A stretch of 64,000 bases of DNA from an uncultured Verrucomicrobiae bacterium (GCA_963825315.1 CAWGST010000003.1:7743-71742), one strand, 5' to 3'; positions 38,158 through 56,819 are shown, numbered from the stretch's first letter. Numbers and translations: made by a program. The notes: a model not told the origin generated them from the sequence alone.

Positions 38158-38300
38158 TGGTCAAAAATAGCCAGAAAGGTCATATTGATAGATAGAGGTC
38201 TGGAAAATCGGCAACACGGCAACAAGCCTTATTTTACAAGGGTTTCGTTGCCCTTTTCCGCCGGCAACACAGCGGCAACGGCTGGCAACATGTTGCCTCT
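38158..38300 (-). repeat. Remnant of a mobile-element terminus: 3' end of a DUF3631-type gene plus 93 bp downstream (inverted copy of 56680-56819)
   Basis: 38158-38250 matches the reverse complement of 56727-56819 at 90/93. 38251-38300 retains a degraded C-terminal coding sequence (PAVAAVLPAEKGNETLVK* versus QPVAGVLQAEKLNETLVK*). Confidence 0.85.
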
Positions 38301-38596
38301 TTTTTGGCAAAGGCGCGAAGGATTAAAGATTTCCTTTCCATTTATATTAAAACACTGGGGTTTCCGAGGTTGATGGGGGCGCTTCCAATTCGCCACACGT
38401 CGCGTGGCGCATCCAAGGCATCAGTCAAGGATTGGAAGCCGGTGCAACTCCACCCGAATCTTTCGTGGTCGCTTTTCCGCGAACTCCCGCGGCTACGCCA
38501 ACCGTTCCCGCTGACAGACATTCCACGCCACGTCTTCCCGGCCACGGTCCGGGTGAACGAAAACGAAACGATCCCTCGTCCCGCTGAATGGATTTG

Positions 38597-38720
38597 AATT
38601 GGCGGAGTCAGGCCCCAAAAGCAGCCGATGTGTCGTTGCAGAATTTGGAGGCCCATGAAAGGGTCCTCAAAAAGTGGCAAGCAAAATGAACGAATACCAA
38701 TTCCCGAAGACCCTTTCAGG
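38597..38720. repeat. Direct repeat R1 flanking phd-vapC (partner R2 at 39581-39718)
   Basis: ATTGGCGGAGTCAGGCCCCAAAAGCAGCCGATGTGTCGTT...GACCCTTTCAGG contains an internal 10-bp inverted repeat, TGAAAGGGTC / GACCCTTTCA. Confidence 0.85.
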
Positions 38721-38786
38721 CCATAATGAGAGCTTCAAATAAAAGTGGTGTCTTGCCGGGAGTAAAAAAACATGTATAGTTAAACC

Positions 38787-39041
38787 ATGATCGAATCAAC
38801 CGCCGCAAACATGGCCCGGAATTTCACTGAATTTCTGGCCAAAGTTGAGCGTGGCGAGACTATCCGCATCCGCGATCAGGGACGGATGGTCGCCCGCATG
38901 GTGCCGGACTGTGATTTTATGCCGGGACAGCAGGCGGCGGAATTGTTCAAGGGACATCGGGCAGACGTTGAAGCCGCCAACGCCATAACCGGCGAACTCA
39001 GAAAGCTCGATCTGGAATCCGAAAATGCCCTGGATCATTGA
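38787..39041 (+). CDS. Type II antitoxin, Phd/YefM-like
   Basis: 84-aa ORF (NMARNFTEFLAKVERGETIRIRDQGRMVARMVP...) overlapping the downstream PIN toxin gene by 17 nt. Confidence 0.7.
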   Translation: MIESTAANMARNFTEFLAKVERGETIRIRDQGRMVARMVPDCDFMPGQQAAELFKGHRADVEAANAITGELRKLDLESENALDH

Positions 39042-39438
39042 CACGGATATTTTCATCGAAGGCGAACGTGGCAACGCCGCCTTTATCGGTTGGCTTCAGA
39101 GCGCGGATGGAATTGCGACAGCCGACATCGTTCGCGGCGAATTCCTTGTCGGGGCTCATGCGGTGGCAGACGAAACCATTCGTCAAAGAGGCGTTCAGTT
39201 TTACTCAGAACGGATCGCTGGCTTGCCGTCTTTTTCTTCCGAACCGGCCGATTATGCCAAAGCTGCCGCGTTGGCTGGGGATGCGCGCCGCAGCGCCAAA
39301 GGCAAACCTGGACTGATTGACGGCTTGATCGCTGCCATTGCCATTCGGACCGGCGCGACTGTAGCCACGCAGAACACCAAAGACTTCAACGCAATGGGGT
39401 GTCCCTGCTCAAATCCGCTTTTGAAGAGTTTGGATTGA
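39025..39438 (+). CDS. vapC: Type II toxin VapC (PIN-domain ribonuclease)
   Basis: MPWIIDTDIFIEGERG (first acidic motif)...GLIDGLIAAIAIRTGATVATQNTKDF (C-terminal PIN motifs). Confidence 0.82.
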   Translation: MPWIIDTDIFIEGERGNAAFIGWLQSADGIATADIVRGEFLVGAHAVADETIRQRGVQFYSERIAGLPSFSSEPADYAKAAALAGDARRSAKGKPGLIDGLIAAIAIRTGATVATQNTKDFNAMGCPCSNPLLKSLD

Positions 39439-39580
39439 GGAAGATTGCTTGCCTGTGAGCTCTTTCCAAAAGGACTGACACTCTCAGGACGCGGGGGAAA
39501 AGCCTGTCTCAGACGATTCAAGACGGTGGAGCGGAATGGGCTTGTCTCGCCGAAATTGGATGAAGGCGGAAGCGGCTTGC

Positions 39581-39718
39581 ATTGGCGAAGTCAGGCCCCA
39601 AAAGCAGCCGATGTGTCGTTTGAGAATTTGGAGGCCCATGAAAGGGTGCTAGAAAATTAGCAAGCAAAATGAACGAATACCACGTTTCAATAAATCCTTG
39701 CTTCCGAGGACCCTTTCA
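39581..39718. repeat. Direct repeat R2 flanking phd-vapC
   Basis: Same unit as 38597-38720 with a few substitutions and a 19-nt insertion (CGTTTCAATAAATCCTTGC). Confidence 0.85.
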
Positions 39719-39775
39719 CTCATAGCGAAGTCGCAAGTCGTTTGAGCCGACTTTGCGGAAAGCTGACCACTTCCA

Positions 39776-42700
39776 TCATTGCATCACCGCCCTATAAAAC
39801 CGCTGGTTGAAATTCGTCGGTGCCGGATCAGTGATAAACGACGGCGAGTTCGTGCTGACAAAATTTGTAAGTGGGAGCCAATTGAAAAGGTCTATTGAGG
39901 CGTCAATCTCATAATTTGAACCGATAGGGCCTTGCAATGTCAGATCGAAATTGCCCGTATTCCAAAGAGGTGATCCGAAACCAATTACAGGGAAATTCGG
40001 AGCGAAATTCGCAATCAACAACTGGTTGCCTGTCGGCGTAAATGTATAACTCGACGAACTGCTGACAATCGTCCCGCCTTGAGTCCAGTTGAAGAATGTG
40101 TACCCACTGTTTGGGGTGGCAACCAGTGTCACACTTTCGCCACAACCTATGCTTTCATCGCCGCTAGTCGTTCCTTCGCCCGAAGGGAAAACTCCACTGG
40201 TGATGCTAAAGGCAACTGGCGCGAAATTTGCCACAAAATTATGATTTGTATCGATTGTAAAGCTGTAATTTGCTGCGCCGCTCACCGGAAGACCATTTTC
40301 TGTCCAACCGACAAAAGAATAGCATTCGGCCGGAGACGCCTGGATAATCGTTGGCGTTCCGCAGTTAAAAGCACCTCCATCGTTCACGGTGCCCCCTGCC
40401 GACGAATACACGGCGACGTTGTAGGAAATCGGCGCGAAGTTGGCCGTGAACACTTGATTGGTTGCCACCGTGAATGGATAATTCGTCGAGGTGCCAACCT
40501 GGGTCCCGTTCGTTGTCCAGTTGACGAACGCGTAACAAGAATCTGACACCGTCGCCGTGAGCGTTTCGCTCTGTCCATTCGTATAAAGACCATCCCCACT
40601 TGTTGAGCCGGCAAACGGTGGTGTCGCAACTGTCCTTATAATTGAACTACCTAGTGGAGCGAAGTTGGCCACTAAATTAGAATCCGAACCGGCTGTAAAA
40701 GTGTAGTTCGAAGACTGGCTTACAAAGCCTACAACCTCGTTTGTCCAGTCAGCAAAGGCGTATCCCAAGTTTGCATTTGCCGTGACCGTAACACTCGTTC
40801 CACAAGCAATAGTTCCACCACCTGTTGTTGTGCCGCCATCCGGGGGCGAGTTCGTCATTGTAATCGTGTAAAAGTTCGTCGTGAAATTCGCCACCAGCGT
40901 CTGATTGGTTGTCGCCGTGAATGAATAATTGGGCAATAAGCTGACCACAATCCCATTCCACGACCAGCATGAAAAGGTGCAGCATGAACTTGGCCTTGCG
41001 GTCACGGTTACAACGGAATTGCTATAAGCGCCGCCGCCGCCGCTGTTCGTGCCGCCATCTGGAGGCGAATTACTCGTGATGATTGTAAAATCGGCCGGGC
41101 CTGTAGGCACTGGAACAGTAGCAGAAACAGGATTTCCAAATCCATCGATCACATGGGCGCTAAAAGTCGGATTCCCATAAACGCTTTGATTGGCGAGCAT
41201 GTAGTTGAAAGAATATTCATTCACGCTCAGCCCACCTTTTTCTTGACCGCCGCAGTAAATTGTTCCCAAAGTTGTAATCTGACCGCACTCTACTTCAGGC
41301 ACACCCCACCCCCAATGTCCCAAAATCCACCGAAGATCTATCGGAGATTGAGGTTGAGGAAGGGCTGAAAGAGCGATGAGCACTTTCAAGTAGTTTCCGC
41401 TAGTCAAAAACCCCCCGTTGCACACAAAGAAATCGAGATTCCCTGTCAGATTCTGATTCGCTTGTCCCTTCATTGGAAACGAATAGCACAAGATGCCGGG
41501 TTGCTTAAAAAGGAATTCTTGAGCCATTTGTGAGTTATAGAGAACCTGAACAGCCACGTCGGACGCTATTTCAACGGGGCTTGAAGGCGCAGGCTGGAAA
41601 CCATTCAATTGGCTAGCGACGGTTTCCTCTGCAACCCACCAACCCATCTCGCCGACATCCGCCGCATCCAATAATGTTCCCCCCACGTCAAATGGAGCAG
41701 TGGCCAAAAAGTTAACAACCTCCAAATCATCGTTCTGGCCGTTCGGGAGAACCGCAGCGAAGAACGCACTAGGTTCAATTTGGACGAGATTGTGCTGTTG
41801 CAATTGTGTGACGATTGGATTGACTAGATTTGCGAATTCGGTATCAGAAATGACCAGCGGAAAACCTGTTGTCGGCGCTTGGATTTCCAACACCAAGTAG
41901 CCAGGCGGAAAGGTAACTGGCAAGGTCAGAACATATGGAGTTGACCATCCGCCTTGGGTTTGGGGGTTTTGCACCTGAAGCATCACTTGATCATCCGAAC
42001 TAAAATGGTCGCCAGTAAATGGACTAAACTTAAAGTTTGCGATGTCAATTTCATTGCCCGTCCAACTTGTGATGTTGATGGTATCCCAATCACCCGCTCC
42101 CCCGGCACTCCAATTCGTTGCGCCCGTAACAGGGTTGATGTCATAAACAATTAAGTTGGTGAGGGCATTAGGAATTCCGCTTGCGCTCCCAAACCCACTT
42201 CCCTGAATTGACATTGTGAGATTCCCGCCGCCAGCGGGACCGACATTTACGCTCGTAATTGTCGGTACGGTAGGGCTACCGGATTGGGAAAGTTCCTGAA
42301 TTTCTGCACTGCTAAGCGCACGGTTGTAAATACGCACGTCAGATAGACTCCCGATGAAGCGCGTGGAGACTCCGCCTCCTTCCCACCAATGAATGCCCAT
42401 GCCAGCATTCCCAGCGGAAGGAACCATTGTACCGCCTGCAGTACCCTAAGACTTGTCCGTCGAGGTAGGTTGTCATAAGACCATTTGCAAAAACTAACGA
42501 GAATCGATGCCATTGGTTCATATAGGAGGCGTACGGATCAATTCGTGCATCGCCCGCAATAAAAGTTAACTGCCCATCGTCTGGATAGTAAGCAATCGTC
42601 ACAACCTGCCCCATTCCGAAGTACTGGACACCAAGGGAAATCAAGCCTTCACCCGGATCGGCGTACCCGGTGATGCCTTGAATGTTCGCCCACAGCGAAA

Positions 42701-42989
42701 CCGTGAAACCCGAAAAAGGCGAGAGATCGATTGATGGAATCCCGACATACTGGCCAGATGTGCCAAACTCTCCCTGTCCAACGAGATAAATTGCTTGCGT
42801 GCCGGGACTCGGCCCGGCAACGAAGCTTGGTGAATTCCATAAAGTTCCATTCAGCCCATTCCCGCTCGCATCAATTGCGTTTCCATTAAAGGGATACCAA
42901 GCGATGAGCCCTTGGTTTAATTGGCATAGACCTGCAAATGGCGTGACCAGCATCGCCGCAACGGCAAATGTGAGCATTTCGAGTTTCAT
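39776..42989 (-). CDS. Giant secreted protein: N-terminal LamG/concanavalin-like domain, central region, six tandem InlB-B-repeat-like domains; one apparent +1 frameshift at 42441-42450
   Basis: Signal MKLEMLTFAVAAMLVTPFAGLC. LamG pattern WYPFNGNA.DASGNGLNGTL...FTVSLWAN, continued in the next frame as ...GIHWWEGGGVSTRFIGSLSDVRIYNRALS. Repeats of ...Y.F..WT.NG......NY.FT......ANFAP. 3,214 - 1 nt gives 1,071 codons. Confidence 0.75.
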
Positions 42990-43502
42990 GTATTTTCTCC
43001 TTCCTGCATCGTTTACTGGGTTCAGAATTTACATGCTGTTTTTAGATGGTTTGAAGCTTTTCCGTGCCATGCGGGGCTGTCTTAGAAAAATGACATTTTA
43101 TCTTCATTTTTGATGGTTGCCGCCTCGTTTTCCATAGCCGGGATGGTGCGACGGCGGAGGTTGCGTGAAAAACCTTCTCCTTGAATCGAACCTTTTGTGA
43201 AATGAACCGCCGCAGAAACTGCCCTTTCTGGATACAACCATTGCACGGGCATTGAAAGCTCACCCCGATGGAACCAACCGCCTGAAAGTTTGATCTCATC
43301 CTAAATTCCGACTGCCGCAGTCATTTTCCCACGCCAACATCTTTTTCGGAACATGCGGATTGAAACAAAATCAAGCGCCCGTTGCAAGCCTGAAAATCTT
43401 GAAAAATCAGGGTATCCAGAGAAAGATTTTCCTGTCGGCGGTGTCACGGCTTGGTTGCCGCCTTTATTTACAAGCTCCCAATGATTTGGTCAGAACCGCC
43501 CT

Positions 43503-43539
43503 GAGATTAAGATTAGGATTACGATTAGGATTAGGAGCC
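43503..43539. repeat. (ATTAGG/ATTAAG)n hexamer array ending GGAGCC
   Basis: GAGATTAAGATTAGGATTACGATTAGGATTAGGAGCC closely resembles the reverse complement of 21481-21516. Confidence 0.9.
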
Positions 43540-43858
43540 GGAAACTGGCCCCGATCTTTTTTTCACATGGACGGCATTTGTCCAGCCGGCCTAGTCATAC
43601 TGCCGGAATGAAAAACAGACATCCTTCGACGAAACCGAAAACTCAACCCCGGGTCCTGGCCTCTTTTGGCCGGGCCAATCTGGTCAGAATGGCCGGTTCC
43701 TGTTGCGAATTGCGCGGCGCTTCAGAGGACGATTTCACCGCCGCCAAGGAATGGATTTCCCTCTTCCTGCATGAGGCCGTCCTGTGCGACGCCCCCATTC
43801 TTCACGCTGATGGATAATCCAAATCTGAAATCTCAAATTTGAAATCCCCCATCCAGGT

Positions 43859-45638
43859 TCACAGGCGGGCGACGAGCAGTTCGCGCTGGAAAGTGAGTTC
43901 CTTGGGCAAATCCGCGTAAAGCTCGAAGAAAAGATCGTCGTGGGCCATGATTTCGCGCCGCCATTCCTCCAGGTTGATGGCCTGGGCCTGGGCCATTTTA
44001 GCCGCGTCGAAATCCTTCATCCCGGCCAGGTCGAAATCGTGCGGGCCGGGCACCCAGCCCAGCGCGGATTCCAAGGCATCGGCCCGGCCATGCGTCCGAT
44101 CCAGGATCCATTTGAGCACGCGCATGTTTTCGCCGAAACCGGGCCAGATGAATTTTCCACTTTCATCGCGGCGGAACCAGTTGACATGAAAAATGCGCGG
44201 CGGGACGGAAATCTTTTTGCGCATGCGCAACCAATGGTGCAGATAATGCCCCATGTTGTAACCGCAGAAGGGCAGCATGGCCATGGGATCGCGGCGCACT
44301 TTGCCCACCGCGCCCATCGCGGCGGCCGTGGTCTCGGAACTCAGCGTCGCCCCCATATAAACGCCGTGAATCCAGTTGAAGGCCTGATAGACCAACGGCA
44401 TGGTCGTGCCCCGGCGGCCCCCAAAAATGATGGCGCTGATCGGCACTCCGTTCGGGTCGTCTGCTTCGGGAGCGCAGGCCGGATTATTGCTCATGGGAGC
44501 GGCAAAGCGGCTGTTGGCATGTGCGGCCGGTTCCTTGCTGCCGGGTGTCCACGGGCGTCCCTTCCAATCGGTCAGTTGCGCGGGAGGCTCCTTGGTTTTG
44601 CCCTCCCACCAAACATCCAAGTCAGGCGTCAGGGCCACATTGGTATAAATGGTGTCGTGAGAAATGGTTTCCATCGCGTTGGGGTTGGTCTCGGCATTGG
44701 TTCCGGGCGCAACGCCAAAATAACCCGCCTCGGGATTGATGGCGTAGAGCCGCCCGTCGGCCCCCGGTTTCATCCAGGCGATATCGTCCCCGACCGTGCG
44801 AATTTTCCACCCGGCAAAATGGGGCGGGGGCACGAGCATGGCGAAATTGGTTTTGCCGCAGGCGCTGGGGAAGGCCGCGGCCACGAAGGTTTTTTCACCC
44901 GACGGCGATTCGGCGCTGAGGATGAGCATGTGTTCCGCCAGCCAGCCTTCTTTGCGGGCCAGCCACGAGCCAAGGCGCAAGGCAAAACATTTTTTGCCCA
45001 GCAAGACGTTGCCTCCATAGTTGGAGCCGGTCGAGATGATCGCGTTGTCTTCCGGGAAATGCGCGATGTAACGCCGTGCCGGATCGGCCTCGAGCATGAC
45101 AATGCAGGCCGCGATTGAAATCCTCGCTCTGCCCCAGGTGTTCGAAGGCAATCCGGCCCATGCGCGTCATGATCCGCATGCTCAACACCACGTAAAGCGA
45201 GTCGGTCAGTTCCAGGCCGACTTTTGTCAGGGTGGAACCGGGCGGTCCCATCAAATACGGAATCACATAGAGGGCGTGTCCGCGCATGCCTCCGGCGCAG
45301 AGGGCATGGAGCTTGCGGTACATCTCCCTGGGCGCGGCCCAATGATTGGTCGGACCGGCGTCCTCCTCGGCGGAAGTGCATATAAAAGTGCGATCCTCAC
45401 TGCGGGCCACGTCGTCCGGTTTGGAACGGTGATAATAACAGCCCGGCAGTTTCTGCTGGTTGAGCTTGAGCAAAATCCCCTGGGCCAGCGCTTCTTCCGT
45501 CAGCCTTTTCTTTTCCTCCCCGGACCCGTCGCACCAGACTATTTTATCCGGTTGGCACAACGCCGCCATTTCCTCGACCCAGCGAATGACGGCCTCATTG
45601 GTGGTGTTGGGCGGGTTCATCTTGTATATCATTGCCAT
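43859..45638 (-). CDS. pckG: Phosphoenolpyruvate carboxykinase (GTP) with one apparent +1 frameshift near 45098-45106
   Basis: The N-terminal frame reads ...WCDGS..E...[22 protein letters not shown]...YVIPYLMGP. The C-terminal frame reads ...[32 protein letters not shown]...[12 protein letters not shown]...[19 protein letters not shown]. 1,780 - 1 nt gives 593 codons. Confidence 0.88.
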
Positions 45639-45683
45639 CAAACATATCGCAAGGCGGCGCTTAAAGTCAAAGATTGTATGGGG

Positions 45684-47103
45684 TTAATCGTTGTACGCGC
45701 TCTCGCCGTGCTGCGTCTGGTCCAATCCCGAACCCTCCTCCTCCGGCGTCACCCGCAGGTCGGCCAGCGCGCTGACAAGCTTGAGGATGACAAACGTTCC
45801 CGACGGCGGCGAGAACCACGGTGAAGATCAGCCCGCGAAATTGATTGCCCAACTGCGCCGGGCCTCCGGCCAGCGACACCACCTTGCCGCCGGCGGTGAA
45901 GGTGTTCCCGATGGCCGCGTTGACGTCCGCGCTCGCGAACAACCCCACCATGAGCAAGCCCGTCGCGCTTCCAACGGCGTGAACGCCGAAGACATCGAGC
46001 GAATCGTCGTAGCGCAACGACGCTTTTTGAGTTTGCTCACCGCCAGTGTAGCAAAACACCCCGCCTGTCAATCCTATTAAAAAGGCCGCCGGGACCGTCA
46101 CGAAACCCGAGGCGGGCGTGATCGTGGCCAGGCCCGCGACCATGCCGGAAGCGACGCCGAGCACGCTGGGCTTGCCCTTGAGGCGCCATTCGGTCACTCC
46201 CCATCCCAGCGCCGCGGCGGCCGCCGAAAAATGCGTTGCCGCAAACGCGCTGCTGGCCAGCGCGCCGGCGTTGAGCGCGCTGCCGGCATTGAAACCAAAC
46301 CAGCCCACCCACAAAAGTCCCGCGCCGATCAGGCTGAGGACGACATTGTGCGGGGGCATCGGCTCGGCAGGGAAACCGATCCGCTTTCCGAGCACCACCG
46401 CGCAGACCAGGGCCGAAACGCCCGAACTGACATGGACCACCATGCCGCCGGCGAAATCGAGCACGGGATACCGGCCGCCATTGCTCCAATTAAACAGGCC
46501 GCCCCGGCCCCAAACCATGTGGCACAACGGGAAATAAATGAACGTCACCCACAGCACCATGAACAGGACGTAAGCCTTGAACCTCATCCGTTCCGCAATC
46601 GCGCCGCTGATGAGGGCCGGCGTGATGATGGCGAACATCATTTGAAACAGCATGAAGCTCTCCTGCGGGATCGTCGGCGCATAGGCCGGATTCGGCGCGG
46701 CCCCCACGCCTTTGAGCATGAAATACTGAAACGGATTTCCGAAAAACGGGTTCCCTTCCCCGAAGGCCATGCTGTAGCCGTACACCATCCACAAGGCCGA
46801 GACCAACGCCATCAAGATCAGGCTTTGCATCATCGTGCTCAGGACGTTCTTGCGCCGCACCAATCCGCCATAGAAAAGAATCAAACCCGGCGCCGTCATC
46901 ATGAGCACCAGCGCGGCGCTGGCCAGCACCCAGGCGTTATCGCCCGCGTTGATGAGCGGAGCCTGGCGGCTGGCCGCCTCCAACCGGGCGACGCGCTGCT
47001 CCATCGTGGCCGCGCCTTGCGCATAAACCGGGTTGAGAAATGCGGGCAGGAGCCAGCAGACCAGAGCGGCGGAGACCCACCGCGGAAGACCAATTTTTTT
47101 CAT
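45684..47103 (-). CDS. amt: Ammonium transporter (Amt family) with one apparent +1 frameshift near 45794-45802
   Basis: Signal plus 11 TM helices, with DFAGGMVVHVSSG and FGVHAVGSATG motifs. The conserved tail TFVILKLVSALADLRVTPEEEGSGLDQTQHGESAYND* lies in the next frame. 1,420 - 1 nt gives 473 codons. Confidence 0.88.
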
Positions 47104-48308: not shown

Positions 48309-48350
48309 AAAAACAAAAAGCCCCTGTCCAGCCTTGCGACTGAACAGGGG
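48309..48350 (-). terminator. Rho-independent terminator (minus strand)
   Basis: In the minus sense the sequence is CCCCTGTTCAGTCGCAAGGCTGGACAGGGG followed by CTTTTTGTTTTT. It has a 7-bp outer stem plus inner pairs and a GCAA loop. Confidence 0.75.
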
Positions 48351-49290: not shown

Positions 49291-49508
49291 TACGGACGGC
49301 GCTTTTGCGCGCATGCGATTCTCCGGCCGCGGCGCGGCGATGGACCGCCCCGGCGCCGATGGTGGATAAGTTTTAAGCCGGAAATGCGCCGGAAACTGCA
49401 TCCACGCCCGAATTCAGGCTTTTTTCTTGTCCTGGCCGCCGTTTTTTTCCGTTTGATGTAGGCGACGCGGCGTTTGCGTTTCACGACTTTATTTGTTTGC
49501 TGGCCCAT
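49287..49508 (-). CDS. Hypothetical very basic small protein (uncertain)
   Basis: ATG preceded by GGAAGAAAG. The N-terminus is MGQQTNKVVKRKRRVAYIKRKKTAARTRKK. The rest is Arg/Gly/Pro-rich and may be non-coding read-through. Confidence 0.25.
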   Translation of the reverse strand: MGQQTNKVVKRKRRVAYIKRKKTAARTRKKPEFGRGCSFRRISGLKLIHHRRRGGPSPRRGRRIACAQKRRPY

Positions 49509-49552
49509 ATATCTTTACTTTCTTCCAAAAATGCGTTCTTTAATGGCGCACT

Positions 49553-50191
49553 ATGAAGAGCCGGCACCGTTCATTCAACATCTATTTTGCGCTGGTCTGC
49601 CTTGCCCTGGCCGGCGGTTGCGCCGCGACCATGGATGTCAAGAAGAAAACAAACCCCAAAAAAGAGCAGTCCACCATCCGCCTGTACCTGGAAGGGCAGA
49701 AAGCGGACAGAATGACCGCCGGCACAGTGCTGGTCACGAGCAACAGAATCCCCTTTACAGTCCAACGCGAGCCTTTTCTGGACGAAGGGGACTTGAGCAA
49801 GGCCTCGATAGTTGATGATGCGGATGGCAGTTTTTACATTCAACTGGTGTTCAACGATCACGGGACATTGTTGCTGGATATGTACACCTCCGACAACAAA
49901 GGCAGGCACATCATCGTCTTCTCTCAATTTCCCACGCCCGGCCAAAAGGCCCATCAGGCAAAGAAAAAGGCGGACGTTTCGGATGACTCGGATTTGGTGG
50001 ATAAAAGCAATGCCGAGCCGCCTTCCGCCGCGCCCCGATGGTCCGGCTGGCTTGCCGCGGTGTTGATTCGGGACCGCATCTCCAACGGCATGTTCCGCTT
50101 CACCCCGGACGCCTCCCGCGCGGAGGGCCTTCGCATTGTGCGGGGACTGAGAAATGTCATTGGCAAGGAAAAGAAAAAGGAACAATTTTAG
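49553..50191 (+). CDS. Hypothetical lipoprotein
   Basis: Lipobox ALAGGC at the end of the signal peptide (MKSRHRSFNIYFALVCLALAGGCAAT). 212 aa with no family recognised. Confidence 0.6.
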   Translation: MKSRHRSFNIYFALVCLALAGGCAATMDVKKKTNPKKEQSTIRLYLEGQKADRMTAGTVLVTSNRIPFTVQREPFLDEGDLSKASIVDDADGSFYIQLVFNDHGTLLLDMYTSDNKGRHIIVFSQFPTPGQKAHQAKKKADVSDDSDLVDKSNAEPPSAAPRWSGWLAAVLIRDRISNGMFRFTPDASRAEGLRIVRGLRNVIGKEKKKEQF

Positions 50192-50221
50192 GCAATCATC
50201 TCCCCAATCTTTTCGATTGAT

Positions 50222-51226
50222 GTGAACAAGATTTTTCTCTCCGGCCTGTTTCTTTTCGCGCGGCTCGCGGCCCTGGCGCAACCGTTTCATTTGCCCACGG
50301 CCAATCAGGCCTTGTTCGAGAAAGGCGGGGAGGAGAAGTTTTTTGTTGGGACCTCCGGCCATTCCTGGACGAGCGGGTGCTTTGGATGCGTTCGTTCCGG
50401 CGGCCGGCAAATGCACGAGGGCCTGGACATCAAATGCCTGCAACGGGACAAGCGCGGCGAACCGTCCGACCCGGTCCTGGCCACGGCCGACGGCACGGTG
50501 GCGTATATGAACAACCGGCCCTCCCTTTCCAATTACGGCCGGTACATCGTTCTGCGTCACGTCATCGGCGGCCTTGAAGTTTATTCCCTCTACGCCCACC
50601 TGGCGGAATTCGCCGGCGGCCTCAAAGCGGGCCAGGCGGTGAGCGCCGGCGAAAAAATCGCCGTGATGGGCCGCACCAGCAACACGCGCGCAGGCATCTC
50701 CAGGGAACGCGCCCATGTCCACTTCGAGCTGAATCTTTTTTACAACGATCATTTCAGCGCCTGGTTCAAAAGGCATTATCCGAAGGAGCATGACGATCAC
50801 GGGATTTGGAACGGACAAAACCTGGTCGGCTTTGATCCGCGCCTGATCTTCCTGGCCCAGCGCGAAGAAGGCCCGCATTTCGACCTCGCGCGCTGGCTGC
50901 AACAGCGCACCGAGATTTGCCGCGTCCTGGTGCGAAAAACCGATTTTTCCTGGCCCAAGCGCTATCCCATGCTGGTGCAAAACGACCCGGCCCTGCCGCG
51001 GGAGCGAATCGCCGGTTACGAAATGGCGCTCGATTTCAACGGTCTGCCCTTCCAATTGATCCCCCGCGCCGCCTCGCAAATGAAAGGGACCGCCAAGTAC
51101 CAACTGCTCTCGGTCAACGAAGCCGAATACACCAAAAATCCCTGCCGCAGGCTGGTGACGCGCCGGGGCGCCCATTGGCAACTGGGCGGAGAGGGCGTCA
51201 ATTTGCTGGATTTGCTGACCAACTGA
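50222..51226 (+). CDS. M23-family metallopeptidase
   Basis: GTG start and signal peptide. HEGLDIK...GTVAY...GRYIVLRH...YSLYAHL...RAHVHFEL fits the HxxxD / HxH zinc-site pattern of M23 peptidases. Confidence 0.8.
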   Translation: MNKIFLSGLFLFARLAALAQPFHLPTANQALFEKGGEEKFFVGTSGHSWTSGCFGCVRSGGRQMHEGLDIKCLQRDKRGEPSDPVLATADGTVAYMNNRPSLSNYGRYIVLRHVIGGLEVYSLYAHLAEFAGGLKAGQAVSAGEKIAVMGRTSNTRAGISRERAHVHFELNLFYNDHFSAWFKRHYPKEHDDHGIWNGQNLVGFDPRLIFLAQREEGPHFDLARWLQQRTEICRVLVRKTDFSWPKRYPMLVQNDPALPRERIAGYEMALDFNGLPFQLIPRAASQMKGTAKYQLLSVNEAEYTKNPCRRLVTRRGAHWQLGGEGVNLLDLLTN

Positions 51227-51246
51227 TGCAGTTATATGTTCACACC

Positions 51247-51840
51247 ATGATTATGAATACTGTGCAAGCCAAAACATCAATTGAACCGCTCGAACTTCAC
51301 CGCCTGCTGGCGGAAGGCGGCCCCTCCCAATTGCTCGATGTCCGCACGCCGGGGGAGTTCGCCGCCGCGCATGTGCCGGGCGCGAAGCTGATCCCTCTCG
51401 ACGACCTCGACCCGGCCGCCTTTCAACGACAGCGCGGCGCGGAGGGAATTCCGGTCTATGTTCTCTGCCAGTCTGGCCAACGCGCCCGCAAGGCGATTGA
51501 AAAGCTCGAACGGGCCGGGGTTCACGGCTGCGTGCTGGTCGAAGGCGGCACACAGGGCTGGATGGACGCGGGGCTGCCGGTCGATCGCGGCCAAAGCAAG
51601 GTTTTGCCGCTGATGCGCCAGGTGCAAATCATCGTCGGCCTTGTTTCGGCTGTGGGCGCGGCTCTTGCGCTGGCCGTCCACCCGCTCTTTGCCATCATCC
51701 CGCTCGTCACCGGCTGCGGTCTGCTGTTTGCGGGAATGACGGGCCTGTGCGGCATGGCGCTGCTGCTGGCGAAAATGCCGTGGAATCGCGCCCAAACCTG
51801 CGGTTCTTGTTGTGCAACAAAAGCGGAGTCTGGTTTATGA
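51247..51840 (+). CDS. Rhodanese-domain protein with C-terminal DUF2892-like membrane segment (YgaP-like)
   Basis: LLDVRTPGEFAAAHVPGAKLIPL...VLCQSGQRARKA (active-site Cys loop), then two TM helices and a CGSCC tail. An alternative ATG lies at 51226. Confidence 0.78.
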   Translation: MIMNTVQAKTSIEPLELHRLLAEGGPSQLLDVRTPGEFAAAHVPGAKLIPLDDLDPAAFQRQRGAEGIPVYVLCQSGQRARKAIEKLERAGVHGCVLVEGGTQGWMDAGLPVDRGQSKVLPLMRQVQIIVGLVSAVGAALALAVHPLFAIIPLVTGCGLLFAGMTGLCGMALLLAKMPWNRAQTCGSCCATKAESGL

Positions 51841-53477
51841 AAAATCCTCTCCGCATCGTGATCGTCGGGGGTGTGGCCGGAGGCGCTTCCGCCGCCGCCA
51901 AAGCGCGCCGGGTTGATGAAAATGCCGACATCCAGATCTTCGAACGCGGCCCCTACATCTCCTTCGCCAACTGCGGCCTGCCGTATTTCATCGCCGGCGA
52001 AATTGACGACCGCGCCAAATTGATCGTCATGACACCGGAAAAATTCTGGGAACGCTCGCGCGTTCGCGCCCACGTCAACCACGAAGCGCTTTCGATCAAC
52101 CGCGCCGCGAAAACCATTTGTGTCAGGGAACCGGATGGCCGGCAGCGCAACGTGCCTTACGACAAACTCGTCCTGAGCCAGGGCGCGAAGGCCATCGTGC
52201 CGCCCGTTCCCGGCGCGAACCTGCCGCATGTTTTCACCCTGCGCGACATCCCGGACATGGACCGCATTGCCGCCTTCCTGAACGAACGGCAACCGCGTCA
52301 CGCGGTCGTCATCGGCGGCGGATTTATCGGACTGGAAATGGCGGAGGCGTTTCACCACCGCGGCCTTCACGTTACCATCGTTGAGCGCGATCCCCACATT
52401 CTGCCGTTGTTGGACCGCGACATGGCTGCTCACCTGCAGAATCAAATCCGCCGCGACGATTTTGAGTTCAAAACCGGCGCCGCCGCAACGCAGTTCACCG
52501 GCGGCGGGGTGGAATTCGCCGATGGCAGCCGGTTGCCGGCAGATCTGGTTTTGATGAGCGTGGGTGTGAAAGCGGAAGTGGAACTGGCGCGGGCGGCGGG
52601 ACTGGAGATAGGCGAAACCGGCGGGGTGAAAACCAACGGCCGCCTGGAATCGTCCGACCCGAACATTTACGCCGTGGGCGACGCGGCGGAAACGATGCAC
52701 GCCCTGACTGGCGCGCGGGCGCGCATTGCGCTGGCCGGCCCGGCCAACCGCCAGGGACGCATCGCCGGCGCCAACGCGGCGGGCGCGCGCCTGATCTATC
52801 CCGGGGCGCTGGGCACCTCCATCGTGCGGGTTCTGAACATGACCGCCGGCTTCACCGGCCTCAACAGCGCCCAGGCGCTGAAGGCGGGCTTCACCTTCTT
52901 CACCAGCCTCACACGCGATGACAGTCACGCGCATTATTATCCGGGCGCAAAACCAGTGCTGATTAAAATCGTCGCGGAGGAAGGCACAGGCCGGCTGCTC
53001 GGCGCGCAGGTCCTGGGTGAATGCGGTGTGGACAAACGCGTGGATGTTTTGGCGACAGCCATCACCGGGAAAATGAGCGTGTTCGATCTGGAAAATCTTG
53101 ACCTGGCCTACTCTCCGCCGTTCGGTTCGGCAAATGATCCCATTAACACGGCGGGATTCGTGGCCGGTCATATCGCGCGGGGCAACCTTGCCACCGTTGC
53201 GCCGGAAACCTGGAAACCCGATGGCGACTACCTGCTGGACGTTCGCGACCCCGGCGAACTGGCGGAATTCGGCAAGCTCAACAACGCTGTGAACATCCCT
53301 TTGGGCCAGTTGCGCGACCGTCTTGGGGAATTGCCGCGCGACCGCCGCATCGTGACTTACTGCCAGAAAGGGCAGCGCGGTTATCTGGCCGCGTGCGCCC
53401 TCCACGGGCGCGGGTTCGAGGATGTGGCCAATTTGCGCGGCGGATTCCTTCAATCGAAACTACTCGGCCAAATTTAG
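51837..53477 (+). CDS. CoA-disulfide reductase / NADH-oxidase-family flavoprotein with C-terminal rhodanese domain
   Basis: IVIVGGVAGGASAAAKARR (FAD GxGxxG)...SFANCGLPY (redox Cys)...VVIGGGFIGLEMAE (NAD site)...YAVGD... The C-terminal part is LLDVRDPGELAEFG...YCQKGQRG. Confidence 0.85.
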   Translation: MKNPLRIVIVGGVAGGASAAAKARRVDENADIQIFERGPYISFANCGLPYFIAGEIDDRAKLIVMTPEKFWERSRVRAHVNHEALSINRAAKTICVREPDGRQRNVPYDKLVLSQGAKAIVPPVPGANLPHVFTLRDIPDMDRIAAFLNERQPRHAVVIGGGFIGLEMAEAFHHRGLHVTIVERDPHILPLLDRDMAAHLQNQIRRDDFEFKTGAAATQFTGGGVEFADGSRLPADLVLMSVGVKAEVELARAAGLEIGETGGVKTNGRLESSDPNIYAVGDAAETMHALTGARARIALAGPANRQGRIAGANAAGARLIYPGALGTSIVRVLNMTAGFTGLNSAQALKAGFTFFTSLTRDDSHAHYYPGAKPVLIKIVAEEGTGRLLGAQVLGECGVDKRVDVLATAITGKMSVFDLENLDLAYSPPFGSANDPINTAGFVAGHIARGNLATVAPETWKPDGDYLLDVRDPGELAEFGKLNNAVNIPLGQLRDRLGELPRDRRIVTYCQKGQRGYLAACALHGRGFEDVANLRGGFLQSKLLGQI

Positions 53478-53529
53478 ACAAACCAAACTATTGGTGCATT
53501 GAAGTTCGTTGCAAAATGCTGATGCGCGA

Positions 53530-53569
53530 GGAGCGCGGGCGTCTCGCCCGCATCCGTCGGCGTCCCGCC
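53530..53569. repeat. REP-like 40-nt motif (reverse-oriented copy of 18284-18323)
   Basis: GGAGCGCGGGCGTCTCGCCCGCATCCGTCGGCGTCCCGCC. It sits at the junction between the high-GC core and the low-GC island. Confidence 0.75.
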
Positions 53570-53768
53570 GACGGAATTATTAAAATTACTTCCATGACAC
53601 CACCCAATTGTCCGTTTCATAAACTTTTCGCCATCGGCACAAAGCTGCAAAACAGCAATTTGTGGCAATAGTATGCTTTGACCCGTCAGACGGTGTGACC
53701 CGCCAGACAGATGCGCATCTGATTAAGGCGTTGATTTTGCTCCCTGGCGGCGACATCTTCGGCGGCAA

Positions 53769-54788
53769 ATGAAACCGGAAAATAAAATGGTGGGTTGGAA
53801 ACAATATCCCGGTCAAAAAGTCCAACTAACCGAAATATCAAAATATATCGTAGAAAGACTTGGCAAGGAACTGTGCAACTGCTCGCACGAATTTTTTAAG
53901 TGCAACACCTCAGGCAAAAGAAGGACAGAAATTATTAAGTGCGCTTCGGCTCACATTGGTGACGAGCTGCATTACAAAGTATATGCAAATAAACTTTCGG
54001 GCTGCTTGCCACCGCCAATTGATGGAGGGCAATGGAAATCCAGAGAATGGCTTTATGACCTTCATTGGTACACTGAAGTGGACGACATCAAGGATTTGGG
54101 CGGGTTCATAGAGATGCTGAGGGTGCCCAACGATTCCGATAAATTATCCCCCTTTTTGTGGAACCAGTTGCTAGACCCGGAAGAGCGAAAAACGCTGGAA
54201 CATTATCAGTCGTCGCCGTCAAGTTCAACGAAAGCTCGAAAAGTTGTTTACGAACTGCTCAAAAAGATAATTGACGGACAATCGATTTACGAACCGACTC
54301 GGTTCAATGGCAAATCGCTTGAAGATATTTCGATTGAAGCGAGCATACTTTTGAACAAATTCAAAAAGAACCTCAAAAAGCGGCGTAAGAGGAACAGTCG
54401 GGCAGTCTCCTGCGAAAAACTCCTGAAGCGCCACAACCGCCTGCTTCTCCAATACACTTATCCAGAAACGGTATTGTCGAGGAACCACGAGTATATGCCG
54501 ACACGTTTACCGTTAGTCGCTGAATTCGAGTGGCGCCCGAAAAGGGAGGAGGACAGCATTGTGCCTTACAGCGGTTTCAAATTTGACTTTCAAAAGCTTT
54601 TGGTCGCTAACGCCGACTTGAGACTAATGGTTTTCAAAATAAAAAAGGGCGAAAAACTTTCGGAGCTTGGCAATTACTTTGACAATGCAATTAAGAGCTA
54701 CGAACATTTAGAGCCGGGATCGCGATTCCTTTTTATCGCATTTGCCGAAGGAGAAGACAGATTTTTCTATGCAGAAAAACACAAATGA
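53769..54788 (+). CDS. Hypothetical 339-aa protein in low-GC island; possible split PD-(D/E)xK-like nuclease core (speculative)
   Basis: A long clean ORF in AT-rich DNA. It has a Cys/His cluster (CNCSHEFFKCN...CASAH), hydrophobic-Asp (EWLYDLHWY) and hydrophobic-E-x-E/K (LPLVAEFEWRPK) strands separated by a basic helical insert (KKNLKKRRKRNSR), and DFQKLL. No family recognised. Confidence 0.6.
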   Translation: MKPENKMVGWKQYPGQKVQLTEISKYIVERLGKELCNCSHEFFKCNTSGKRRTEIIKCASAHIGDELHYKVYANKLSGCLPPPIDGGQWKSREWLYDLHWYTEVDDIKDLGGFIEMLRVPNDSDKLSPFLWNQLLDPEERKTLEHYQSSPSSSTKARKVVYELLKKIIDGQSIYEPTRFNGKSLEDISIEASILLNKFKKNLKKRRKRNSRAVSCEKLLKRHNRLLLQYTYPETVLSRNHEYMPTRLPLVAEFEWRPKREEDSIVPYSGFKFDFQKLLVANADLRLMVFKIKKGEKLSELGNYFDNAIKSYEHLEPGSRFLFIAFAEGEDRFFYAEKHK

Positions 54789-54900
54789 GAGAAAAGAACA
54801 AACCTGTCGGCTATCGGCTCGAGTCCGAGAAGTCACAGGAGCCATTCTGCGTTGCACTTTTTCCTCGCGCTGTCCCCAATGAACTCGATTCAAGGAGCCG

Positions 54901-54924
54901 TCATAGGGTCATAGGTCATAGGGG
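54901..54924. repeat. Iteron-like (TCATAGG)x3 tandem repeat
   Basis: TCATAGGG TCATAGG TCATAGGGG, followed by AT-rich sequence, in the 490-bp intergenic region upstream of the DUF3631 gene. Confidence 0.8.
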
Positions 54925-55057
54925 TCAAACCGTACTATTGACTTGTTGATGTTCTTTTGCCGGCGCTAAGGTCCGCCTCGGCGCGCCCCGAAATGCTGGC
55001 ACATATTAACGCCGACACGGATAAAGCCTGCTTCGTCTGCGTCCATCTGCGTGTTTC

Positions 55058-55123
55058 GCGGACTTGTCGCGCCACAGCTTGGCGGCGGCGGACTTGTCGC
55101 GCCGTAGCCCTGCGAAGGCGGAT
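55058..55123. repeat. Two tandem copies of the GCGGACTTGTCGCGCC... dispersed repeat
   Basis: Copies at 55058-55088 and 55088-55123. The second is 32/36 identical to 1232-1267. Confidence 0.8.
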
Positions 55124-55220
55124 ATTTCGCGGTTAAAACTCATAAGCTATTGCAGTTCAAGCCTTTAAGCCACTTTTGCCTCAAAAGTGAAGGTTTTTTA
55201 AAAATTCTTCCAAATATCTG

Positions 55221-55249
55221 TTGACGAAATGATGTATTAACGATAATCT
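55221..55249 (+). promoter_or_regulatory. Putative sigma70-type promoter for the DUF3631 gene
   Basis: TTGACG (55221-55226), a 17-nt spacer, then TAATCT (55244-55249), 33 nt upstream of the ATG. Pattern match only. Confidence 0.3.
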
Positions 55250-55281
55250 TCAGCTAATGAACAATTGAACAATTAAAATAT

Positions 55282-56748
55282 ATGAGAAAGACACCAAAAC
55301 TATTCACCGAAGAGACAGAAACCGAGTGGCCCGGAGAGGTCAACCTGGCAGAACTGCTGAACGAAATCAGGAACACAATCCGAACGCACGTTGTAGTGAA
55401 CGCGAAAGCGGCCATTGCGCTTGCGGTATGGGTGGTCCACACCTACGTTTTCGAGTTGCGCGATGCCGTGGCTTACGTCGCCATTGAATCACCGGAAAAA
55501 AGGTGCGGGAAAACGACGCTTCTTTCAGTCCTGGCGGGGCTGGCATCAAAACCATTGATTGCATCGAATATTACGGCAGGGGCGCTGTTCCGCGCCATTG
55601 ATGAAGCGTCACCAACGCTGTTGATTGACGAGGCGGATACTTTCCTGGCGGGCAACGGGACCATGCGCGGCATCCTCAATTGCGGCAACACCTGGAGAAC
55701 CGCTTTTGTAGTGCGGTTGCGCAAAAAAGGCGAGGGAGCGCGGGAGACGGAAGTTGCCGGGGAGACCATGAAAAAAGAAGGTGAATTGGAAAAACCGCCA
55801 GCCGAAGGGAGCCTTGTTTCATACGGCTGTTACTGCCCGAAAGTCGTGGCCATGATAGGGCAGGTTCCCGAAACGCTGGCCGACCGAAGCATCGTGGTAA
55901 AGATGAGCCGCAAGTTAGTTGAAGAAACATGCGTTCCTCTCAAAGATTTCCATCCGGGGCAAATCAGGGCCAAATGCAAAAAGTTTGCCAGGCAGAACGA
56001 ACAAATCGTCAAAGACGCGCCGCAAGAGCGCCTGGAGGGGCTGAACGACCGGGCCGCGGACACCTATGAACCGCTCGCTGTCATCGCCCGCATGGCCGGG
56101 GAAAATTGGCTCCAGGAATTGACGCAAGCGGCAGCCTGGCTCACCTCGTCACAGAACGTTGACAGCAAAGGCCCCACGCTGCTTCTGGATGTGCTGGAAA
56201 TCCTGCTGACCGCCCCCGGCATGAAGATGTTCAGTCGAGACCTGGCCGGGGCGCTCAGAGGGGAGCGCGGATTCGTTCCGACCCAGCATTTTGCTGAAAA
56301 AAAGGTCACGGAACAAGTTTTGGCAACGACCCTTCGCAGATATGGCGCGCGCCCTTCAACCATGCGAATCGGGCGCGAAGTCAACAAGGGCTACTCGGCC
56401 CAGGACTTTCGCGAGGCGCTGCAACACTACGTGCCAAGGGCCGATATTGACGCACGGCTCGAAGAGATCAAAAAAACCGATGCCATACGGCAGGAACTGG
56501 CAGATGAACTTGGCAAGGAGGTCGAAGTACAAGAAGCCGGTCGTCTGCTGAAATTGGCGAAATTGAAGTTGGCAAGGCTCGAAGCGATGAAAGGTTCAAG
56601 CCAGGCATTGCAGGAACCGTTGCCGGAGGGGTTTAACGACATCACAGAGCAAATCAAGGCCGAAATAGTCGATTTGCAAAAGAAAGTGTTGCAGCCAGTT
56701 GCAGGGGTGTTGCAGGCCGAAAAGCTCAACGAAACCCTTGTAAAATAA
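55282..56748 (+). CDS. DUF3631-like P-loop NTPase typical of integrative/plasmid replication modules
   Basis: WPGEVNLAELLNEIRNTIRTHVVVNAKAAIALAVWVVHTY...ESPEKRCGKTTLL (Walker A)...PTLLIDEADTFL (Walker B)...GILNCGN...PKVVAMIGQVPETLADRSIVVKM matches my recollection of DUF3631 proteins. Confidence 0.75.
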   Translation: MRKTPKLFTEETETEWPGEVNLAELLNEIRNTIRTHVVVNAKAAIALAVWVVHTYVFELRDAVAYVAIESPEKRCGKTTLLSVLAGLASKPLIASNITAGALFRAIDEASPTLLIDEADTFLAGNGTMRGILNCGNTWRTAFVVRLRKKGEGARETEVAGETMKKEGELEKPPAEGSLVSYGCYCPKVVAMIGQVPETLADRSIVVKMSRKLVEETCVPLKDFHPGQIRAKCKKFARQNEQIVKDAPQERLEGLNDRAADTYEPLAVIARMAGENWLQELTQAAAWLTSSQNVDSKGPTLLLDVLEILLTAPGMKMFSRDLAGALRGERGFVPTQHFAEKKVTEQVLATTLRRYGARPSTMRIGREVNKGYSAQDFREALQHYVPRADIDARLEEIKKTDAIRQELADELGKEVEVQEAGRLLKLAKLKLARLEAMKGSSQALQEPLPEGFNDITEQIKAEIVDLQKKVLQPVAGVLQAEKLNETLVK

Positions 56749-56819
56749 GGCTTGTTGCCGTGTTGCCGATTTTCCGGACCTCTATCTATCAGTATGACCT
56801 TTCTGGCGATTTTTGACCA
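56680..56819 (+). repeat. Mobile-element terminus (3' end of the DUF3631 gene plus 71 nt downstream); inverted partner of 38158-38300
   Basis: See 38158-38300. Similarity stops abruptly at ...ATTTTTGACCA (56819). Confidence 0.85.

Follow-up and report, generated by a model that had tools for sequence, protein, structure and literature searches.

An inverted repeat pair around an 18.4-kb block of a Verrucomicrobiae genome as probable independent members of a DUF3631-linked, origin-like repeat family at island ends

Two similar sequences lie in inverted orientation 18.4 kb apart in a 64,000-nt stretch of DNA from an uncultured Verrucomicrobiae bacterium (the window; genome G000), and an earlier note had read them as two copies of one mobile-element terminus, left either by a large inversion or by twin integrations. 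Do they form a pair at all? The similarity itself was confirmed: the inverted match of 38158-38250 with the reverse complement of 56727-56819 was recounted at 90 of 93 positions, and the degraded continuation proposed between 38251-38300 and 56680-56726 is real and falls in the last 20 codons of a DUF3631 gene, where the left copy reads GTTGCC three times and the right copy GTTGCA three times. In a repeat search of 37000-58000, this was the single standout inverted pair, with arms of 140 nt each (38151-38290 and 56687-56826), 88% complementary and separated by 18,396 nt, the runner-up being only 37 nt at 70%. By our own count the arms agree at 123 of 140 positions, the longest perfect run being 49 nt (38202-38250). 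We consider, with a probability of about 70%, that these arms are independent members of a DUF3631-linked, origin-like repeat family found at island ends, and that their pairing is incidental and involved no inversion. The features concerned are listed in Table 1.

Table 1. Features around the two arms (window positions unless a contig is given).
Feature	Position	Strand	Evidence
gmk (guanylate kinase), core gene abutted at its 3' end by the left unit	37462..38109	+	Pfam Guanylate_kin, 1.3e-30
Left-unit tail: AT-rich CTATCTATCAAT stretch, variable hairpin, conserved stretch; points outward to gmk	38118..38205	-	Family alignment
Left-unit 89-nt A-type core, orphan without DUF3631 gene	38206..38294	-	BLAST with core consensus, 94%
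Left-core GTTGCC repeats	38284-38289, 38274-38279, 38263-38268, 38218-38223, 38210-38215	-	
Variable low-GC island L: Phd/PIN toxin-antitoxin pair, Flg_new_2 giant protein, LamG protein	38460..43528	.	GC ~0.50, Pfam
Core block: pckG, amt, xerC, tRNA-Met, M23 peptidase, CoA-disulfide reductase	43528..53692	.	Collinear with G003
339-aa protein, first gene of right island	53769..54788	+	No family match
Region upstream of the DUF3631 gene, duplicated along with the gene on contig C2	55123..55281	+	
DUF3631 (RepAM-type) P-loop gene; last ~20 codons repeat-encoded	55282..56748	+	Pfam PF12307
Right-unit 89-nt A-type core	56683..56771	+	
Right-core GTTGCA repeats	56688-56693, 56698-56703, 56709-56714	+	
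Right-core GTTGCC repeats	56754-56759, 56762-56767	+	
Right-unit tail, same subtype as left tail (93% identical), directed away from DUF3631 gene	56772..56826	+	
Fragment of a second unit tail, another subtype	56827..56940	+	
Orphan second copy of a gene 3' end, that at 59656-59749	56941..57034	+	93% over 94 nt
DUF3631 loci running into a unit in this genome	Window; C2:326.5 kb; C1:1721 kb; C1:1593.9 kb		

The outer limits of the two arms were not those first described. The left copy had been said to stop abruptly at TGGTCAAAAAT, but an alignment of copies showed that its likeness to other family members continues to about 38118-38123 and ends 9-14 nt from the gmk stop codon. Four species of the genus share a conserved gmk 3' end, and the left-unit tail was found at the orthologous place in G003, a same-genus species. 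The right copy had been described as abutting an orphan gene end; that orphan end is real, but about 115 nt of a truncated second repeat tail intervene, and this fragment matches C1:3013295-3013355 (93%) and C1:2427004-2427083 (85%), both of which adjoin family units. As the note had stated, the right copy alone keeps a full DUF3631 gene. The left copy is an orphan: a tblastn search detected no DUF3631 remnant at the left core beyond the repeat-encoded tail. In the right island, the 339-aa protein had no match in Pfam, PHROGs, PADLOC or NCBIfam, and positions 55138-55276 upstream of the DUF3631 gene form a module of their own, dispersed in at least 10 copies.

If the arms had recombined, the 18.4-kb block would have inverted or would flip within the population. 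The 49-nt perfect run in inverted arms would be enough for RecA-dependent exchange, and the area is prone to rearrangement, as gmk and pckG are not adjacent in other genera and the neighbours of gmk differ in G002 and G004. Against this, G003, which is about 93% identical and is the sole relative with a contiguous assembly at the gmk-pckG region, shows collinearity with the window between 34.6 and 53.7 kb, where gmk and pckG-amt-xerC keep their relative order and orientation; a unit stands beside gmk in G003 too, and the right island, including the right arm, is entirely missing there. G002 and G004 carry gmk, pckG-amt and xerC on separate contigs with other neighbours, and their synteny is therefore uninformative on orientation. 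The GC skew of the core block is negative, like that of both flanks. The DUF3631 frame runs uninterrupted into the right arm, and the present junction is therefore native. Lastly, inverted neighbour pairs are not enriched in this genome (3 outward-facing among 23 neighbour pairs less than 40 kb apart). As far as gene order and sequence tell, no inversion has occurred since the split from the nearest relative, and recombination between the arms is a very unlikely account of the locus. Given the 49-nt perfect run, a rare flip within the population is possible.

The sequence had been treated as a two-copy feature, whereas it has 47 matches in the genome. BLAST with the core consensus returned about 32 near-full copies of the 89-nt A-type core, and at least 66 related units were counted by a motif of two repeats plus tail; strict triple-GTTGCC arrays numbered 38, versus 0 for the reversed control. 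Each unit consists of three GTTGCC words one helical turn apart, a spacer, two further GTTGCC words and an AT-rich tail. The words are 6-8 bp long with a spacing of 10-11 bp, and the first three are identical. The A-type arms have 3 + 2 repeats around a 38-nt spacer, and the arrangement in relatives is 3-5 + 2. The spacer of the B/C subtype, which is the commoner one, contains an invariant TTAAGT and a GTTGA-loop-TCAAC hairpin; the A-type core of both window arms is without this constant hairpin and its consensus fold is weak. In a comparison with the pC194-like nick motif CTTGATA, 29 of 66 units had TTGATA in the tail when its complementary strand was read, and 39 of 66 had TATCAW. Thirty matches were found in G003 and short pieces only in G002 and G004; G001, G005 and 25 genomes of other genera or families gave none. 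Multiplication of orphan copies was seen in at least three genomes of two genera (G000, G003 and G015). Judged from sequence, the family is lineage-restricted and modular, and the window arms are independent members of it. Neither core is the closest relative of the other (that of the left arm is 96.6% identical to C1:2440790), and the inverted orientation and 18.4-kb spacing of the arms are incidental. Among some 66 near-identical units, any two may pass for a special pair, which calls for caution.

The units might be genes for a structured small RNA or for a peptide of 20 residues, since the left copy has, at its end on the opposite strand, a short hairpin and then a T run, and many copies contain an ATG-initiated 20-codon frame. 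However, no relevant Rfam match was obtained at eight scanned loci carrying the repeat, the codon at the stop of the short frame differs among copies (TAA, TGA, TCA, TGG, TAT), and the consensus fold of 28 copies reached only -6 to -9 kcal/mol per 140 nt on either strand. The structured-RNA reading was dropped because of this weak fold on both strands, and we regard an RNA or peptide product as hardly credible. The units might instead act as outward-firing promoters or operators (TTGCCG, 18 nt, TATCAAT) that activate the gene adjacent to an island; phased direct repeats recall response-regulator sites, and in two checked islands (C1:2711.5 kb and C2:706.6 kb) the tail aims at the start of the flanking gene. 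This appears quite improbable, as the downstream gene is co-oriented in only 28 of 59 arrays, both window copies aim at the 3' ends of convergent genes, and a consensus scan found no sigma-70-like site in either arm.

Insertions of 12.4, 4.7 and 6.5 kb that have no counterpart in relatives each contain one of three other units, placed 18-140 nt in from the edge, and the empty sites in those relatives are also without a unit. In all three islands checked in this way, the unit is at one end and its tail faces core DNA. Across 59 arrays genome-wide, the GC content of the 2-kb flanks was 0.554 on the inner side and 0.588 on the outer side, and the inner value was the lower one in 46 arrays (p=5e-7; polarity p<1e-5), a result robust to larger gaps. 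The units thus mark one end of islands that are low in GC and strain-specific, and their tails face the core chromosome. These islands are small and integrase-less, and their cargo includes defence, toxin-antitoxin and restriction genes. At the place of island L, G003 carries a different insert of 3.4 kb, and island L is unmatched between conserved borders. The right unit lies within, and not at the outer edge of, a genome-specific region of 13.4 kb. No shared terminus was found at the opposite ends of five islands, which are heterogeneous and hold only other short dispersed repeats. The units offer a practical marker of island boundaries in genomes that are hard to annotate, and their presence in integrase-less islands raises the question of how such islands move.

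The description of the arms as a mobile-element terminus holds insofar as each is a terminal module of inserted accessory DNA. That they are a pair of copies of one element's end is unsupported: A-type cores number about 32 and units at least 66, with no enrichment of inverted neighbour pairs. Likewise, they are "twin scars" only in the loose sense of two island ends: they are independent and of different age, the left site being present also in G003 and the right one confined to this genome.

The units may also be MITE-like non-autonomous transposons moved by a transposase, their association with DUF3631 being a historical accident. The copies are many and small with sharp module boundaries, their orientation is random with respect to neighbouring genes (28 same, 31 opposite), a 16-bp palindrome (TGGYYAAAWWTAGCCA) stands on both sides of some units, and the genome is rich in IS elements. 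However, no target-site duplication was observed in the filled and empty sites compared, the junctions being replacements rather than clean insertions, and the units are polar and come with kilobases of cargo. Together with the conserved linkage to DUF3631 genes described below, these observations make a MITE-like origin unlikely.

Other mobile systems were considered. Paired inverted units as transposon-like ends were rejected for want of enrichment. An integron cassette array was discarded, the best TIGR02249 score being 80.6 bits against a cut-off of 265, so that no integron integrase was recognised, and the units are weakly folding direct repeats rather than attC-type hairpins. A Tn7-like end, which would call for a TnsB-type transposase and TniQ/TnsD, was rejected as well, since neither PF09299 nor PF06527 had a match in G000 or G003; the TniQ search was also matchless in control genomes, and that absence is weak evidence.

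The units are linked to DUF3631 genes. A unit starts at, or overlaps, the stop codon of these genes, or its repeats begin 100-190 nt past it; in the window gene, three repeats fall within the last 20 codons and two past the stop. Every DUF3631 gene of this clade in the genome runs into a unit. The same design (3-5 repeats, hairpin, 2 repeats) follows homologues in G002, G003, G004, G015 and G018, as well as in three of four unrelated metagenome contigs with 50-53% protein identity, and repeats lie within or at the end of their own gene in 10 of 11 homologues in the taxonomic family at 50% identity or more. They were absent at one G004 homologue, at one metagenome contig and at the homologues in G008 and G010, which are 43-45% identical. 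The repeat word varies by lineage (GTTGCC, GTTGCG, GTAGCG, GTTACC, TGTAACGG, TGTAAAC, TGTTGCGCC) and the hairpin is constant. This same architecture, kept with different words beside DUF3631 genes across genera, suggests selection on a cognate site and not the accident that a MITE-like origin supposes.

The encoded protein scored 73.3 bits against PF12307 (cut-off 24; residues 211-383), and Walker A and Walker B motifs are visible in its translation. It has more than 3400 homologues, all with PF12307; PHROGs, PADLOC and NCBIfam gave it no name, and a PDB sequence search returned nothing. Its AF2 model (pLDDT 74.9) has a helix/beta-hairpin region at about 296-383. A Foldseek comparison of this model with the PDB gave no match at E<=0.001 (best 0.088), and SaPI PriRep1 (7pds) ranked only 42nd (E 2.2). 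Genes for an integrase, an excisionase or transfer were absent from the islands and from the 6 kb around the DUF3631 homologues examined, a search that covered three loci in G000 as well as G015, G018 and four metagenome contigs; the intact, integrase-bearing element with this terminus that the note had envisaged was not found at any of them.

Initiators with iteron origins are familiar on plasmids, on phage satellites and on integrative elements of actinomycetes. To our knowledge, no cis site has been described for the large DUF3631 clade of Verrucomicrobiota and neighbouring phyla; here a putative one can be read straight from the sequence, and its lineage-varying word and constant hairpin may represent a testable specificity code. 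RepAM is a DUF3631 protein (PMC3218068), and binding to repeats and support of replication are known for the RepAM of pMEA300 only (te Poele et al., reviewed in PMC2440964). Because the native place of the unit is at the DUF3631 stop codon, and RepAM binds repeats of its own gene, we infer by analogy that the iteron array would be the cognate cis site of the DUF3631 protein, an origin-like site of binding and melting, with parallels, studied by experiment, in the pMEA300 RepAM repeats and in the iterons after SaPI rep genes. The right arm would then be an intact gene-plus-site module in a region specific to this genome, and the left arm an older orphan site adjoining gmk.

In this genus the site would have multiplied far beyond its gene, mostly as orphan copies: three full DUF3631 genes and one fragment stand against at least 66 units in this genome. 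Around 60 units lack both a DUF3631 gene and any detectable trace of one past some 30-50 nt of the gene 3' end, and tblastn with six homologues found only the repeat-encoded tail 5' of the orphans. A gene-independent spreading route is therefore needed, which weighs against the origin-like reading, as do the weak A-type fold without the constant hairpin, the lack of a significant structural match to known initiators, the absence of mobility genes, the internal position of the right unit and the homologues without repeats. It is conceivable, if doubtful, that the orphan units are functional origins fired in trans by the DUF3631 initiator. If so, expression of one of the few DUF3631 genes, for instance upon phage attack, would lead to over-replication of dozens of defence and accessory islands in place, or else to their release as replicating circles. 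This would amount to a genome-wide, origin-tagged and integrase-free amplification or mobilisation of islands, and would explain the fixed-polarity placement of the units at island ends.

Among known systems, pMEA-type RepAM shares with the window gene the Pfam family PF12307, several identical short repeats within the initiator's own gene or at its 3' end, a hairpin among the repeats (here in the B/C subtype, whereas the A-type window arms have only a weak one) and a gene position near one end of an integrated element. It differs in host (Actinomycetota, versus Verrucomicrobiota here), in protein sequence (26-29% identity) and in the place of the repeats, which lie well inside the RepAM gene and here start from the stop codon or 100-190 nt later; in addition, the site is amplified here to dozens of orphan copies per genome. 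Membership of the actinomycete-type integrative and conjugative elements (AICEs) was rejected, as no integrase, excisionase, attP or FtsK-type transfer gene accompanies the rep gene here, nor is a Prim-Pol gene nearby, whereas a Streptomyces plasmid-form element used for comparison carries the AICE genes and has the gene order DUF3631, HTH, integrase. SaPI origins have 6-12 iterons directly 3' of rep, split into two sets by a central region (PMC9371898). The likeness lies in hexanucleotide iterons immediately past the rep frame, in two sets with a central region, in an iteron sequence specific to the initiator variant, and in a P-loop initiator with a predicted winged-helix-like part, the SaPI-type initiator being a self-loading helicase whose winged-helix domain is C-terminal. 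However, no sequence similarity emerged from the PDB search and no significant fold similarity from Foldseek, direct repeats predominate among the iterons here while those of SaPIs face each other, int, regulator and packaging genes are missing here, and orphan copies are not known as a SaPI feature. Finally, like REP/BIME and Correia elements and integrase-less attC arrays, the units are intergenic, present in dozens of copies, situated in strain-variable DNA and used as IS targets, at least six units being split at CTATCTA. In contrast to these, they are phased direct repeats instead of a palindrome or attC-type hairpin, they occur in a genome without an integron integrase, and they are polar to islands and have an identifiable protein-gene partner.

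The repeat search of 37000-58000 returned a single outstanding inverted pair, whose arms are 140 nt long, 88% complementary and 18,396 nt apart, the runner-up being a pair of 37 nt (70%). An in-register count over the full arms gave 123 matches out of 140, 49 of them in one unbroken stretch (38202-38250), and 90 of 93 positions matched again over 38158-38250, thus confirming the inverted repeat; its occurrence by chance is not an issue. However, the earlier note described the arms as two copies of one terminus, and the left arm matched 47 places across its own 5.46-Mb assembly. The arms therefore belong to a family and do not constitute a pair. Neither core was the nearest relative of the other, the left one being 96.6% identical to a copy at 2.44 Mb of contig C1, and the 45-nt tails alone were each other's nearest (93%).

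The alignment of these matches demonstrated the anatomy of the repeated unit. The A-type core (89 nt, ~32 copies, 88-100% identity) starts with the 12-bp palindrome GCAACATGTTGC and contains three GTTGCC repeats with a 10-11-bp spacing, a 38-nt spacer, and two further GTTGCC repeats; it is followed by an AT-rich tail reading TTCC.GACC and then CTATCTATCAAT onward. The B/C-type units, which outnumber the A-type and are frequently found in tandem with it, have a different spacer, with TAAGT and then a GTTGA-loop-TCAAC hairpin, and the word itself varies in some of them (e.g. GTTACC or GTAGCG). A motif search for the two-repeat-plus-tail part retrieved 66 units (20 A, 39 B/C, and 7 other). Among the 30 relatives compared, the family was found in bulk only in G003, the closest genome of the same genus (30 matches); a few short pieces were present in G002 and G004, and no match was found in G001 or G005 or in 25 genomes from other genera and families. 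In at least six units, insertion sequences of two or more kinds interrupt the tail at one and the same place, CTATCTA, which is present on either side of the insertion; the unit tail is a preferred IS target. Runs of the TAATCN hexamer (e.g. TAATCCTAATCGTAATC) occur at ~120 places in the genome, including 43460-43530 of the window (C3:51202-51270), often at island borders and between units.

Features of the window and of the rest of the source genome (C1 to C6, contigs; plain coordinates, window).
Feature	Location	Remarks
gmk	37462-38109	in yicC-gmk, directly before left arm
Left arm	38151-38290	A-type core
Low-GC stretch	right of left arm	GC ~0.50; Phd/PIN pair, 883-aa Flg_new_2 protein, LamG protein
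~117-nt direct repeats	38583-38699, 39566-39682	88%; either side of Phd/PIN pair; few more partial genome copies (C5:346879, C1:1256551)
Core block	~43.5-53.7 kb	GC back to ~0.60; pckG, amt, Xer-type recombinase (NF001399 above cut-off), tRNA-Met, M23 peptidase, CoA-disulfide reductase with rhodanese domain
pckG	43859-45641 (-)	two overlapping frames; PEPCK_N positions 1-166 in 44895-45641, remainder in 43859-45151
Second low-GC stretch		339-aa gene without family assignment, DUF3631 gene
Dispersed module	55138-55276	separate; just upstream of DUF3631 gene; 10 or more copies, spread over four contigs
DUF3631 gene	55282-56748	PF12307, 73 bits
Right arm	56687-56826	A-type core; entered by DUF3631 reading frame
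P-type ATPase gene	after DUF3631 gene	opposite strand
94-bp direct repeat	56941-57034, 59656-59749	93%; brackets P-type ATPase gene; second copy is the real 3' end of the gene that follows
DUF3631 copy	C2:322700-327000 (L055)	second cassette, 4.3-kb low-GC island; copy 95% identical, cassette DNA 93% over 1.64 kb; neighbours BglII-like endonuclease and N6/N4 methylase (restriction-modification pair)
DUF3631 3' fragment	C1:1.72 Mb
DUF3631 paralogue	C1:1.59 Mb	57% identical
Unit-edged insertion	C1:860.5 kb	12.4 kb
Unit-edged insertion	C1:2706.9 kb	4.7 kb
Unit-edged insertion	C2:700.2 kb	6.5 kb
IS-split units	C5:386971-388861, C5:850197-852298, C1:2071704, C6:35658, C2:459800, C5:222140

The earlier note also proposed a large inversion of the 18.4-kb block. 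In G003 (~93% identical here), yicC-gmk, pckG-amt, and xerC-tRNA lie on a single contig in unchanged order and orientation, the whole locus is collinear over 34.6-53.7 kb of the window, and the right island, which holds the DUF3631 gene, is missing. The GC skew of the core block is negative, as in its flanks. Nothing points to an exchange between the arms, and an inversion between them is very unlikely. G002 and G004 cannot settle the orientation, since gmk, pckG-amt, and xerC are on separate contigs with other neighbours, gmk included.

G003 also has a unit at the gmk site, but it belongs to the C subtype and reads GGTAAC in place of the window's GGCAAC. At this orthologous site (window 38151-38296, L033:4340-4500 in G003), the flanks are conserved and the unit spacers differ; the subtype was exchanged in place, either via conversion or via independent insertion. 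The island between the conserved borders 38460 and 43528 differs in content. After the reductase gene, G003 carries 4.2 kb of other DNA and then sequence whose counterpart in the source genome is at C3:74.8 kb, past the window end, so that 53693 to ~67.1 kb is specific to the source genome. gmk and pckG adjoin only in the source genome and G003 and are megabases apart in G015 and G009; their distance in other genera indicates that the region downstream of gmk is an old hot spot, and the gmk-pckG junction, where the left unit sits, is an old synteny breakpoint. Other differences were observed along the locus. Between amt and xerC, at 47153-47159, G003 has a 1.8-kb insertion with an 81% match on C6 of the source genome. 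The P-type ATPase is not found in G003 and has a match of only 77% in G002. pckG is a single open frame of 590-650 aa in the relatives, and its split in the window means either that it is a frameshifted pseudogene or that the assembly is in error.

Three other A-type units were compared with G002, G003, and G004. Each lies within an insertion missing from these relatives, 18-140 nt from its edge and with the tail facing the conserved flank, and the unit is also missing from the empty sites. These islands carry IS elements or genes for a PLD-type nuclease, a dynamin-like GTPase, a phosphoesterase, and a PHP-ATPase (weak matches to defence families). Over 59 arrays genome-wide, the mean GC of the 2 kb on the inner side was 0.554 versus 0.588 on the outer side, the inner side being lower in 46 (p=5e-7); windows with GC below 0.54 made up one third of inner, 3% of outer, and 11% of random ones. 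The window arms fit this polarity, their tails pointing outward, toward gmk and away from the DUF3631 gene, the right unit being internal to its genome-specific region and not at its outer edge. No common sequence was found at opposite island ends, and inverted pairing of units was not above expectation. Searches for an integron integrase and for TnsB and TniQ found none, the TniQ profile matching in no genome, control genomes included, and an integron and a Tn7-like system were rejected. A promoter role for the unit is improbable, as the units show no preferred orientation relative to the next gene (28 same, 31 opposite) and no sigma-70-like site scored in either window arm.

DUF3631 sequences of this clade occupy only four places in the genome, and all four run directly into a unit; some 60 other units are orphans. 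The same design, consisting of 3-5 phased repeats from the stop codon, TTAAGT/hairpin, two repeats, and a T-rich tail, was found 3' of two homologues in G002, one of the two in G004, two in G015 (another genus), and one in G018 (a third genus), and of a remnant in G003. Three of four unrelated metagenome contigs (50-53% protein identity) bear it 100-190 nt past the stop. The repeat word changes with lineage (GTTGCC, GTTGCG, GTAGCG, GTTACC, TGTAACGG, TGTAAAC, TGTTGCGCC) and the hairpin, which is missing from the A-type core, is constant, as expected for a protein paired with its specific binding site. That the unit is a MITE, as the 16-bp palindrome flanking some units might suggest, is doubtful, since the observed junctions are replacements without target duplications and the design kept beside DUF3631 genes across genera would be left unexplained. 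A structured RNA can practically be discounted, as Rfam gave no match and the consensus folds were weak.

A role of the unit as a site for the DUF3631 protein is suggested by known replication initiators. Walker A and B motifs are present in the window protein, whose AlphaFold model (pLDDT 74.9) contains a helix/beta-hairpin region at ~296-383; a PDB fold search with this model gave no significant match. Plasmid-form Streptomyces elements encode distant homologues, their gene order being Prim-Pol, DUF3631, HTH, integrase, and one distant homologue was found in a Pseudomonas phage. The actinomycete integrative element pMEA300 has as its replication initiator RepAM, a DUF3631 protein (PMC3218068), and the RepAM repeats, which can form a hairpin, are regarded as the origin (PMC2440964). 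Staphylococcal islands carry 6-12 iterons directly 3' of rep, arranged as two sets on either side of a central region, and every Rep recognises its own iterons (PMC9371898). By these parallels with RepAM and the staphylococcal islands, the unit would be the cognate origin-like site of DUF3631, and an origin function is likely, with a probability of about 0.6-0.7.
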